Sequence record: PV464739.1
Strand: one strand, 5' to 3'
DNA from: Escherichia phage RCIP0363
Length of the DNA stretch: 64,000 nucleotides
Positions 53,514 through 54,854 of this stretch are shown here, in pieces. A program made the translations under genes and the position numbers. Position 1 is the first letter of the stretch. Every line of letters begins with the position of its first letter. The notes under the pieces are model-generated. The model was not told the DNA's origin, searched no databases, and saw only the letters and a program-made list of their open reading frames with translations.

Positions 53514-53598
53514 TCAAAAAGGTGAGCTAAATGCTTGCCTTTTCTTTTATCAATACTTATACTCTTTTCATCAAGACTAACAAGCGAGGTGAATAATG
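53514..53598 (+). promoter_or_regulatory. Conserved intergenic element, copy 1 (hairpin plus promoter-like box)
   Basis: aaaaaggtgagctaaatgcttgcctttt followed by tacttatact and ttcatcaag; identical 30-bp core also at 54775. Confidence 0.45.
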
Positions 53599-53913
53599 AT
53601 TTACTTAGGCATCGACCAGGAACAAGACGAGCGGTTAGGAAGCGTGTTAAACGTAGAATTAAACACAGCTGTACACGTCAAGCCTTGGCCAGAGGCGCAC
53701 CCCGACGTAGTTGTACCCGTCGCACCTTGGACGCGTTACGTGGCCATTGATAATGACGGCCTTGTCCATTGTTACTCAGAAAAGCCGACATACTTTGAAA
53801 AGTATCACCAATGGCTTATGACTGGATGGGCAAAGGTGCGCTGTTGCGGCGAAGTCGGTCTGGAAGGATGGGGCTTCGAGGCTAGTGAATCGTGTGTCGA
53901 GGTGCAATTATGA
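53596..53913 (+). CDS. Hypothetical early protein
   Basis: ATG with gaggtga SD; shares a short motif with the protein at 56437. Confidence 0.5.
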   Translation: MIYLGIDQEQDERLGSVLNVELNTAVHVKPWPEAHPDVVVPVAPWTRYVAIDNDGLVHCYSEKPTYFEKYHQWLMTGWAKVRCCGEVGLEGWGFEASESCVEVQL

Positions 53914-54128
53914 ATGCCGCGCTGGGTAAGCTGTCTTTCAACAAACGCAATGAGCTGCGCATGGTGTCTCGTTTTCAGTTTTTATTGAATGCCATGTCAA
54001 GCGTTGCCATAACAATGCTTCGCGCCGATTGCCCTGCTGAAAAGCGTGAGACTTTATTCAAACGCCACCAACAATTACGAAATGCTGCTTATAAACTGCA
54101 GCAATATGCTATGGAGTATGCAAAATGA
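53910..54128 (+). CDS. Hypothetical early protein
   Basis: ATG at 53910, ATGA overlap. Confidence 0.45.
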   Translation: MNAALGKLSFNKRNELRMVSRFQFLLNAMSSVAITMLRADCPAEKRETLFKRHQQLRNAAYKLQQYAMEYAK

Positions 54129-54517
54129 GAATGAAGCGTTGCCCTTACTGCCACGATGTAATGCATCTTCCGCATGAAGAGTTCGTGCAGCATATGGCTA
54201 ATTGTGATAAGAATCCTAATAGCGAAAGCCAGCTTGAAGAAAGAATGTTTCTGGTGTCATTCAAGTATTCAGCTTATGACACGCAACTGGCTTACGGTGC
54301 GAGCGGTGCACCAAGTGCTGTTTACAGACCGATGACATTGAGAAGTGACATTGACTCGATGCAGCTTGCGGCCTGGATTAACGTTAAGGAAGGCATAACA
54401 TGGCACTTTATCGCGCGCATCCAATCCCAGATTCTACAAATCAAGCGCGAATACAACCGTGACATTACTGAAGTGAAGGTGCTGTCCATAACGCCAATGA
54501 ATAAGGAGTTGCCGTGA
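54125..54517 (+). CDS. Hypothetical early protein with Cys/His cluster
   Basis: N-terminal CPYCHDVMHLPHEEFVQHMANCD. Confidence 0.5.
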   Translation: MRMKRCPYCHDVMHLPHEEFVQHMANCDKNPNSESQLEERMFLVSFKYSAYDTQLAYGASGAPSAVYRPMTLRSDIDSMQLAAWINVKEGITWHFIARIQSQILQIKREYNRDITEVKVLSITPMNKELP

Positions 54518-54774
54518 ACAAGGGTCCGATGACTAAGCTGGCCGTTGCCGCGCGGAAGCTTCGACAAGCCGTTAATGGGTCGCGGCCCGTGGCGTTAACA
54601 CTCGACGATGCAAAGGCACTGGTAGAGCTACTCGACGAGCACAACCGACGCAAGAATCTGGAGAACACATTACGTTGGCGAGTCACTCCAGCAGGACGGG
54701 AGAGCGAGAAGAAAGCTTACTTGCGGCGTAAGCTAAGGTCAGTCGGCCTCCACGAAGAGGCGAAGAATATTTAA
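54514..54774 (+). CDS. Hypothetical early protein
   Basis: GTG start with aaggag SD; internal ATG at 54529 is an alternative. Confidence 0.45.
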   Translation: MNKGPMTKLAVAARKLRQAVNGSRPVALTLDDAKALVELLDEHNRRKNLENTLRWRVTPAGRESEKKAYLRRKLRSVGLHEEAKNI

Positions 54775-54854
54775 TTCAAAAAGGTGAGCTAAATGCTTGC
54801 CTTTTTATTTACCTGTATTATACTTAGTTCATCAAGCAAAGGAGAGTGATTATG
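54775..54854 (+). promoter_or_regulatory. Conserved intergenic element, copy 2
   Basis: Same 30-bp core as copy 1, followed by tattatactt and ttcatcaag. Confidence 0.45.

Follow-up and report, generated by a model that had tools for sequence, protein, structure and literature searches.

A repeated putative terminator-promoter cassette on either side of a four-gene module in the Wifcevirus RCIP0363

Escherichia phage RCIP0363 is a Wifcevirus, an E. coli myovirus with a genome of about 68 kb. In the 64,000 nt of sequence record PV464739.1 that were analysed (the window), the same 30 nucleotides stand twice between genes of a co-directional array. This raises the question of what an element kept in two identical copies does at these two junctions. 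The original prediction was a reused terminator-promoter or processing cassette that segments an early operon. Segmentation of the array by a reused terminator-promoter cassette fits every sequence-level test that was run, whereas RNA processing, bidirectionality of the hairpin and the label "early", which is an assumption, are unsupported. We consider it likely that both copies are composite regulatory cassettes between genes, terminator plus promoter, on which the host RNA polymerase acts; the annotation of the relative Bas99 includes no phage RNA polymerase.

Extent and placement of the repeat

The 30-mer TCAAAAAGGTGAGCTAAATGCTTGCCTTTT occurs on the + strand at 53514-53543 and 54776-54805. 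The repeat is exact, as had been reported, with the second copy starting at 54776 and not at 54775. Within the whole window these are the only two copies. Further copies, which had been thought worth looking for, were absent from the window with up to three mismatches allowed, and window scans with GCTTGCCTTTT and TATACTNNNTTCATCAAG returned the two known cassettes only. None of 100 shuffles of the window contained a match to the 30-mer, and none is expected by chance. E. coli genomes contain no copy of the cassette, which rules out a borrowed host terminator.

Both 30-mers directly follow a stop codon. The first lies 3 nt past the TGA at 53508-53510 (+ strand) of the upstream gene (ORF 53178-53510), a stop codon that is itself inside the 21-nt sequence AAATGAATATCAAAAAGGTGA, which WFC, Bas100 and SP13 carry in duplicate around an extra gene; the second lies 1 nt past the TAA at 54772-54774. 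The repeat continues beyond the 30-mer. The true unit is 62 nt long in cassette 1 (53514-53575, + strand; hairpin with the -35 hexamer, spacer, -10 hexamer and start-site box) and 61 nt long in cassette 2 (54776-54836, + strand), with nine differences. The copies are identical in the hairpin and -35 (30/30), in the -10 (6/6) and in the box TTCATCAAG (9/9), and over the 62 columns six differences fall in the promoter spacer and three in the 3 nt past the -10. By our own hypergeometric estimate, the confinement of all nine to those 20 columns has p ~8e-6.

From 48.7 to 57.8 kb there are about 23 gene junctions, and a gap of more than 40 nt is found only at the two that the cassettes fill. Between the cassettes lies a module of four genes (53596-54774, + strand) with coordinates 53596-53913, 53910-54128, 54125-54517 and 54514-54774. 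The first of these has the Shine-Dalgarno (SD) sequence GAGGTGA and an ATG at 53596 (53586-53598, + strand), and the gene past cassette 2 has the SD AAGGAG and an ATG at 54852 (54839-54854, + strand). None of the four module proteins has a Pfam match or a functional PHROG assignment. The module was also considered as foreign DNA, a reading that was rejected on its G+C content, which is not distinct from the surroundings.

Hairpin, predicted promoter elements and their conservation

At its 5' end each cassette has an A-tract, then a hairpin of 11-12 bp in which two pairs are G·U, then a U-tract. In cassette 1 the hairpin spans 53517-53543 on the + strand (arms 53517-53527 and 53533-53543, loop 53528-53532), with the U-rich tract UUUUCUUUU 3' of it at 53540-53548 (+ strand). 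Cassette 2 has the same 27 nt at 54779-54805 (+ strand), followed by UUUUUAUUU; here 54778 and 54806 add a twelfth base pair. The core stem of 7 bp (4 G-C, 2 G·U, 1 A-U) has -8.7 kcal/mol, and the full stem of 11-12 bp, with the A/U extension and a loop of 5 nt, has -13.7 kcal/mol in cassette 1 and -14.2 kcal/mol in cassette 2. The RNA of the + strand folds at -14.2 and -14.7 kcal/mol (z ~-4.1; none of 200 shuffles as stable), that of the - strand at -11.8 and -9.7 kcal/mol (z -2.6 and -2.2). For the isolated stem the values are -13.7 kcal/mol on the + strand versus -8.8 kcal/mol on the - strand. The hairpin, which had been described as weak and bidirectional, is thus strand-asymmetric, because the two G·U pairs turn into A·C on the other strand, and of ordinary stability, standing at the weak end among the other terminator-like hairpins of this phage (-7 to -20).

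Stem and loop lie within the range of intrinsic terminators on the transcribed strand (stem 5-14 bp, loop 3-8 nt), eight of the nine nucleotides past the core stem are U in both copies, and the structure stands on the sense strand just past a stop codon. By their sequence, A-tract, hairpin and U-tract together resemble an intrinsic terminator, or an attenuator, of the + strand. A generic terminator scan, which uses the longest possible stem, flagged copy 1 only. The annotations of WFC and WFH already carry both hairpins as putative terminators, and the WFC record labels both "putative transcriptional terminator, -10.10".

The promoter elements overlap and follow this hairpin. In cassette 1 the -35 hexamer TTGCCT (53535-53540, + strand) lies inside the 3' arm and is separated by a 17-nt spacer from the -10 hexamer TATACT (53558-53563, + strand); the TTCATCAAG box (53567-53575, + strand) contains the predicted start, A 53570, 7 nt past the -10. 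In cassette 2 the -35 is at 54797-54802, the -10 at 54819-54824 after a 16-nt spacer, and the box at 54828-54836 with A 54831 as the predicted start, all on the + strand. The TATACT-like box, the TTCATCAAG sequence and the start codon that had been noted downstream of the repeat are thus confirmed in both copies. Both spacers fall within the 16-18 nt range for sigma-70 hexamers, and TTGCCT and TATACT together agree with the E. coli consensus in 9/12 positions, a score that is not significant alone (36 sites found versus 26.7 expected in 16 kb). The narrower pattern TTGCYT-N16/17-TATAMT occurs at 9 sites in the window versus 0.12 expected, an enrichment of about 75-fold. These sites lie mostly just 5' of genes and in the correct orientation, and the same seven sites are present in positions 1-49000 of Bas99. 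The combination of the -10, N4 and TCATYRA, a pattern defined post hoc, is found at four other sites as well. The promoter part of the cassette fits, as judged from these motifs, a sigma-70 promoter that belongs to a phage-wide recurrent family. A hairpin followed by a promoter-like motif, in the same layout but with no sequence homology, stands also at 57.81-57.86 kb (+ strand) and at about 29.4 kb (- strand). A reading of TTGCTT/TTGCCT as the MotA box of T4 middle promoters was rejected: 16-17 nt separate this hexamer from the -10, which suits a sigma-70 -35, whereas a Mot box stands roughly 13-15 nt from the -10.

In 28/28 Wifcevirus records the cassette occurs exactly twice, at unchanged positions. 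Among 15 genomes the variable columns of the hairpin number 0/27 in copy 1 and 3/27 in copy 2, those of the -10 0/12 and those of TTCATCAAG 0/18; in the neighbouring coding flank 86/205 columns (42%) vary. Where the hairpin is substituted, the loop is changed in five genomes and the stem in only one. Because the stems practically never vary, they offer no covariation support. The spacers are copy-specific yet conserved among genomes, and the duplication is therefore older than the genus. Invariance over 27-30 nt, unrepaired G·U pairs included, exceeds the obvious need of a terminator and a -35, and may reflect an additional constraint. The invariant 30-mer may also be recognised by a phage-specific factor, which might, for instance, turn termination on or off over time.

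Similarity searches found the cassette in Wifcevirus only. In IMG/VR the hairpin-only and promoter-only patterns gave the same Wifcevirus contigs and nothing else, and a search guided by the protein of the first module gene gave ECML-117 only; these searches gave no more distant relatives in which covariation could be judged. A metagenome scan with the loop left free returned Wifcevirus contigs and, in unrelated contigs, terminator-like hairpins with the same stem, different loops and a T-run after each. The latter are a case of analogy, not homology.

The terminator-promoter reading of the original prediction is supported at the sequence level by the copy-to-copy pattern, the near-invariance across the genus, the promoter family and the position in the only sizeable gaps of the array. 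From the sequence anatomy, strand-specific folding, conservation pattern, promoter family and synteny observed here, we infer how termination and initiation would proceed at the cassettes, and with what efficiency. Transcripts arriving from upstream would form AAAAGGUGAGC-UAAAU-GCUUGCCUUUU and the U-tract just past the stop codon, and part of them would terminate; the hairpin is probably a leaky terminator (attenuator), because its 7-bp core includes two G·U pairs. At the sigma-70 promoter that appears to overlap the hairpin, transcription would start anew from the A of TTCATCAAG, and the resulting transcript would have a short leader that contains the SD of the next gene. The two cassettes would split the co-directional array from 46.4 to 57.8 kb into three units and insulate the four-gene module. 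The resulting map of the right-hand array places predicted promoters near 46.27, 47.41, 53.54 and 54.80 kb, and predicted stops near 53.54, 54.80 and 57.82 kb.

Possible gene exchange at the cassettes and alternative readings

A further reading, compatible with a terminator-promoter cassette, draws on the PeSL (promoter-early stem-loop) cassettes of T4-like phages, of which neighbouring copies recombine to give mini-circles (Arbiol et al. 2010, PMC2839356; Comeau et al. 2014, PMC4122927): the repeats would be mobile or recombination cassettes of that type, kept for the excision, insertion and exchange of ORFans. We regard this as possible, though not as the probable reason for their maintenance. 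Comparison of relatives gives three cases of gene insertion or replacement in which the junction falls within a cassette or at its border. WFC, Bas100, SP13 and one metagenome contig carry an extra gene of 195 nt, on either side of which 21 nt from the 5' part of cassette 1 stand as a direct repeat; in RCIP0319 a 1.4-kb insertion has a half-hairpin, GGTGAGGTAAAT, at one end and the complete cassette 2 at the other; and the gene slot past cassette 2 holds at least four unrelated genes across different relatives. Against this, the junction past cassette 2 is an 8-nt start-codon microhomology, TTATGAGT, outside the cassette proper, and about eight further breakpoints in 52.3-57.8 kb fall at gene boundaries without a cassette. 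With 3 of about 11 events at 2 of about 20 gene boundaries, p is ~0.09 (our own estimate, conditioned on gene boundaries), so that the enrichment of breakpoints is only suggestive. Each genome has two copies only, and no genome or contig without the 1.26-kb module was found among the 28 Wifcevirus records and the metagenome contigs.

The cassettes might still serve, as a secondary matter, as sites of crossover through which genes are gained and lost, because they are the only long conserved non-coding sequences in the variable region. It is rather doubtful that both are points of gene capture and exchange outside the T4-like phages, with incoming ORFs recombining into the hairpin. On such a capture reading the 5' arm AAGGTGA, complementary to the 3' end of 16S rRNA, may become the Shine-Dalgarno of the captured gene, and an intact terminator-promoter may be regenerated downstream of it. 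If true, the 30-mer would be kept invariant by selection for a linker for recombination and translation start that is shared by co-infecting Wifceviruses.

In another alternative the cassette would have promoter function alone. The 30-mer would then be conserved as an upstream/-35 region, or as a DNA site at which a phage or host regulator binds the imperfect palindrome AAAAGG-N15-CCTTTT, and the hairpin would be incidental and non-terminating. The -35 does lie within the repeat, the invariance of 27-30 nt, with the G·U positions included, is above what a terminator needs, and operator-like palindromes stand at other promoters of this phage (e.g. at 40.26 kb). We nevertheless think it unlikely. 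Both imperfect positions of the stem are G·U pairs, and this on the sense strand only, for which our own estimate of the chance is ~1/36. A U-tract follows the hairpin in both copies, and near-identical hairpins without promoters stand at terminator positions elsewhere. Variation is confined to the loop, on this reading the proximal upstream promoter subsite or the centre of an operator.

The converse, a terminator only, with TTGCCT and TATACT as chance matches, agrees with the frequency of 9/12 matches by chance and with the annotation of the relatives, which have a terminator alone here. It is improbable in view of TATACT and TTCATCAAG, which are the same in both copies and invariant in the 15 genomes while the sequence between them differs, of the roughly 75-fold enriched motif family and of the two spacings of 17 and 16 nt.

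A conserved sense-strand hairpin between cistrons would also suit RNA processing or stabilisation, with the hairpin as a nuclease target or 3' protection that tunes the stability of segments of one long transcript. This part of the original prediction is quite improbable: the conserved -10 and start-site box would be left unexplained, and Rfam gave no family match (best hit at a permissive threshold MicX, 17.6 bits versus a gathering score of 75, E 0.78; nothing credible). A stem of 11-12 bp is short for a substrate of RNase III, and an RNase III site was ruled out on stem length.

Translation of a small peptide (MLAF...) from the ATG in the hairpin loop is hardly credible: an SD-like AGGTGA, a 5-nt gap and the ATG are present in both copies, an A-to-G variant of the loop gives GTG, and small ORFs are annotated here in Bas98 and Bas99, but neither frame nor length is conserved (18 to 72 codons for copy 1, fusion of many copy 2 frames to the downstream gene), the SD is sequestered in the stem, and the annotated ORFs use other starts and frames.

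Comparison with known systems

As a putative terminator-promoter unit, the cassette is a familiar kind of phage regulatory element and implies no new mechanism. Wifceviruses are little-studied coliphages that matter for applications: their reported latent periods are very short, they are used against O157 strains and they are now represented in the BASEL collection. For these phages the analysis provides a predicted promoter consensus that holds across the genus, TTGCYT-N16/17-TATAMT, in many cases combined with TCATC at the start site, and putative compact insulator parts of 62 nt.

Small gene sets insulated by their own promoter and terminator are known from terminator-promoter junctions of lytic phages and from "moron" units, and the Wifcevirus module resembles both. 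It differs from them in being co-oriented with the surrounding operon, in being present across the genus and in a base composition that is not distinct.

The jumbo coliphage Turkey5 has a hairpin identical at 33/38 positions, with a perfect stem, between convergent genes (AAAAAGGAGAGCTTAATGCTCTCCTTTTCTTTTAT). The Turkey5 terminator and the Wifcevirus cassette share the order of A-tract, stem, short loop and U-tract right after a stop codon. Compared with Turkey5 and canonical terminators, the two G·U pairs make the Wifcevirus stem one-directional and weaker, and in its 3' arm CTCTCC is replaced by CTTGCC, exactly the change that makes a -35 hexamer. Homology of the two hairpins is uncertain at E ~2e-3.

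The closest parallel in layout is provided by the PeSL cassettes. Like these, the Wifcevirus cassettes are composites that reach from stop codon to ATG, with a sigma-70-like promoter, a terminator/attenuator stem-loop, an A/T-rich upstream part and an SD; G·T pairs in the stem-loop have been noted for PeSL too, and in one of the five PeSL subclasses the stem-loop overlaps the -35 in the same way. Both recur between ORFans of a variable region. PeSL cassettes are associated with insertions, deletions and replacements among close relatives, and the three events at the Wifcevirus cassettes are suggestive of the same. PeSL cassettes occur in dozens of dispersed copies in hyperplastic regions, whereas the 28 Wifcevirus records have two homologous copies per genome at syntenic sites that are fixed in all genomes. 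The Wifcevirus lineage is unrelated (not Tevenvirinae-like), and no sequence homology to PeSL was seen in the similarity searches, which found the cassette in Wifcevirus only. The PeSL type of layout, in which a terminator is fused to a promoter at the junctions of variable genes, would thereby be extended to an unrelated lineage of phages.

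Position and anatomy of the cassettes

A search with window positions 52.5-56 kb matched 28 phage records (87-95% identity), every one a Wifcevirus myovirus of E. coli or Shigella with a genome of 66-72 kb (including ECML-117, FEC19, WFC, WFH and Bas98-101). By the annotation of Bas99, structural genes (0-28.5 kb, + strand) and replication genes (28.5-46.3 kb, - strand) are followed by a divergent region at 46.3 kb, from which a + strand array of two primase genes and about 40 small genes of unknown function extends to ~59 kb. No RNA polymerase gene is annotated in Bas99, so the host enzyme presumably transcribes these phages. 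Between 48.7 and 57.8 kb there are about 23 gene junctions, and at all but three of them the genes overlap or abut: one at 51.03 kb leaves 39 nt, and the two that hold the cassettes leave 85 and 77 nt. The array is predicted to be split by the cassettes into units of 46.4-53.5, 53.6-54.8 and 54.85-57.8 kb, the middle one a module of four ORFans with unremarkable G+C content. In the last unit, 55599-55652 and 57166-57219 are 74% identical across 54 nt, which suggests a paralogous domain (...WGGxNPVPGK...) common to ORFs 55267-55770 and 56921-57340.

The cassette is real, duplicated and strongly conserved and, as read from its sequence, would act as terminator (attenuator) and promoter. No published promoter or transcript analysis for Wifcevirus was found in the literature. 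As originally noted, an exact 30-bp repeat lies between genes (53514-53543 and 54776-54805, the second start having been placed one nucleotide early, at 54775), each copy right after a stop codon (TGA 53508-53510; TAA 54772-54774), with a TATACT box and the conserved box TTCATCAAG ahead of the next ATG. The true repeat is 62 nt long (53514-53575 and 54776-54836, + strand). Each cassette reads, 5' to 3' from the stop codon, TC, A-run, stem GGTGAGC, loop TAAAT, stem GCTTGCC, T-run, spacer, TATACT, 3 nt, TTCATCAAG and a leader with a Shine-Dalgarno (SD) sequence before the start codons at 53596 and 54852. A -35-like TTGCCT lies within the 3' stem arm, 17 nt (copy 1) or 16 nt (copy 2) from TATACT. 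No third copy of the 30-mer was found within 3 mismatches in the window, and shuffled sequence gave none.

The + strand RNA forms a hairpin of 11-12 bp (-14.2 and -14.7 kcal/mol, z -4.1; equalled or bettered by 0/200 shuffles), of which the 7-bp core stem alone gives -8.7 kcal/mol and is followed 3' by UUUUCUUUU and UUUUUAUUU. The - strand RNA is weaker (-11.8 and -9.7 kcal/mol, z -2.6 and -2.2). This asymmetry is due to two G·U pairs in the + strand RNA, and the hairpin is thus, contrary to what had been proposed, not bidirectional. With other intergenic hairpins of the phage at -7 to -20 kcal/mol, that of the cassette is of ordinary stability, toward the weak end, and hence plausibly a leaky terminator. 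The WFC record, and WFH under the match, label both hairpins 'putative transcriptional terminator, -10.10'; the paper describing these phages cites the ARNold terminator predictor in its reference list. No Rfam family matched the cassette. A small ORF (MLAF...) from the loop ATG was rejected, its length and frame not being conserved. Automatically annotated small ORFs or extended starts span the cassettes in the BASEL records (Bas99_0075, L007 4503-4595; Bas98_0076, L010 4496-4588; Bas101_0078, L008 5780-6091; L-numbers denote extracted loci); as neither frame nor length stays the same from genome to genome, these calls are probably artefacts.

Conservation between copies and genomes

The two copies differ in 9/62 aligned columns; the promoter spacer accounts for six of these and the triplet separating the -10 box from TTCATCAAG for three, whereas all blocks functional under a terminator-plus-promoter model are identical (30/30, 6/6 and 9/9); the chance of such confinement is ~8e-6 by our own hypergeometric estimate. 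Exactly two copies are present in 28/28 Wifcevirus records. Both were extracted from 15 genomes and then from three metagenome contigs. The hairpin of copy 1 does not vary in the sampled genomes; copy 2 has loop variants (TAAGT in Bas99, Bas100 and TH32; TATAT in Bas101 and RCIP0319) and one stem-breaking change (SP13). Variable columns number 0/27 and 3/27 in the hairpins, 0/12 in the -10 box and 0/18 in TTCATCAAG; in the neighbouring coding flank they number 86/205 (42%). The spacers are copy-specific, yet kept between genomes, and this, with the near-invariance of hairpin, -10 box and TTCATCAAG, indicates that the duplication is old. Since the loop variants occur in copy 2 only, the identical blocks are kept by selection and not by wholesale gene conversion. 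No compensatory stem changes were seen among the compared copies (15 genomes, three metagenome contigs), so covariation gives the structure no support. The absolute invariance of the 30-mer, G·U pairs included, is an unexplained residue.

Related promoter-like sites, hairpins and repeats

The putative promoter of the cassettes is one of a promoter-like family spread over the genome: TTGCYT-N16/17-TATAMT occurs nine times in the window (0.12 expected), at 2213, 6949, 21311, 47406, 53535 and 54797 (+), at 42495 and 46200 (-), and at 12903 (-), antisense within a structural gene. The other eight are mostly close upstream of correctly oriented genes, and 7/7 sites falling in Bas99 1-49000 are conserved there. 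Sites of the structural genes have TATAAT, those of the replication and small-gene regions mostly TATACT. The pattern -10 + N4 + TCATYRA, which was defined after some sites were known and whose statistics are inflated, is found in both cassettes and, on the - strand, at 33426-33441, 40259-40274, 42484-42499 and 20867-20882, where TCATC lies 4 nt past a -10-like hexamer, as in the cassettes. From the usual 7-nt distance, transcription is predicted to start at the A of TTC-A-TC (53570 and 54831). At 40.23-40.30 kb (-) a perfect 12-nt palindrome, CGTTTCGATGAG-N10-CTCATCGAAACG, surrounds the -10 box and looks like a candidate operator; TCATCGAAACGAA is seen again at 33.4 kb.

Two composites not homologous to the cassettes also join hairpin, T-run and promoter: GGCCGATTGGCC-CTTTTTG-TTGCCT-N16-TATTAT (57809-57856, +), which closes the array, and AAAGCCGGAAATTTCCGGCTTTTCTTTTA-TTTACT-N16-TATACT (~29.38-29.46 kb, -). 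A terminator followed by a promoter is therefore a general arrangement in this phage. The cassette itself was found in none of 5,426 E. coli genomes, and in GenBank phages and IMG/VR no copy was found outside Wifcevirus. The jumbo coliphage Turkey5 (PQ471516.1; L030 601-638) carries, between convergent genes, a hairpin that matches that of the cassette at 33/38 positions and has a perfect stem. Compared with it, the 3' arm in Wifcevirus has exactly two changes, CTCTCC to CTTGCC, which create TTGCCT while G·U keeps the pairing; the likeness is taken as an analogy only, homology being uncertain (E ~2e-3). Large unrelated metagenome contigs (L020/L024, L021, L025, L027/L028) have the same stems with different loops, then a T-run. 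Either an ancient common origin or convergent evolution of the same terminator design could account for the shared stems.

Other repeats were noted. Tandem 9-mers ATCCGTATC / GATACGGAT occur at 6669-6910 and 58201-58440, 51.5 kb apart (71% identity over 99 nt), both adjoining a 60-nt almost pure A+T stretch and the former close upstream of the TTGCCT-17-TATAAT promoter of the head-protease gene; they may be candidate origin iterons or regulator binding sites. The 23-nt motif CCACTAnnnnATTTGCACTATAA has four copies over 1.2 kb (58613, 59099, 59279 and 59794, +), probably at or near the 3.7-kb terminal repeat, judged by the offset from WFC. A long intergenic stretch holds TCGCGTAAGTCnTTGTTTTATAnAG twice, 52 nt apart (61792-61868), and a 45-nt tandem pair of 72% identity (61975-62062).

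Gene-content differences at the cassettes and comparison with PeSLs

When 13 relatives were aligned with the window, three gene-content events were seen at cassettes. WFC, Bas100, SP13 and one metagenome contig have an extra 195-nt gene with a 21-nt direct repeat, AAATGAATATCAAAAAGGTGA, on both sides; this repeat comprises the stop codon and the 5' portion of cassette 1, and the half-hairpin AAGGTGA provides the SD for the added gene. In RCIP0319 a 1.4-kb insert of three genes sits between a degenerate half-hairpin, GGTGAGGTAAAT, and cassette 2, which is intact; here too the half-hairpin supplies the SD and the start region for the first gene of the insert. Immediately 3' of cassette 2, genes of at least four unrelated families are found (MSYDERF..., MSTEVHN..., MSNEAMK... 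and MRIKPAT...), and here the window differs from most relatives by a junction within the microhomology TTATGAGT. A recombination role of the cassettes is possible rather than established, and somewhat doubtful, since about eight further breakpoints (52.3-57.8 kb) lie at cassette-free junctions, the enclosed module is lost in none of the 28 Wifcevirus records, and enrichment at cassettes is weak once conditioned on gene boundaries (p ~0.09, our estimate).

Unlike the promoter-early stem-loop (PeSL) cassettes of T4-like phages (PMC2839356; PMC4122927), those of Wifcevirus occur in only two copies and are not homologous to PeSLs; the three events resemble what is described for PeSLs, with an enrichment that is only suggestive, and PeSLs are the nearest architecture.
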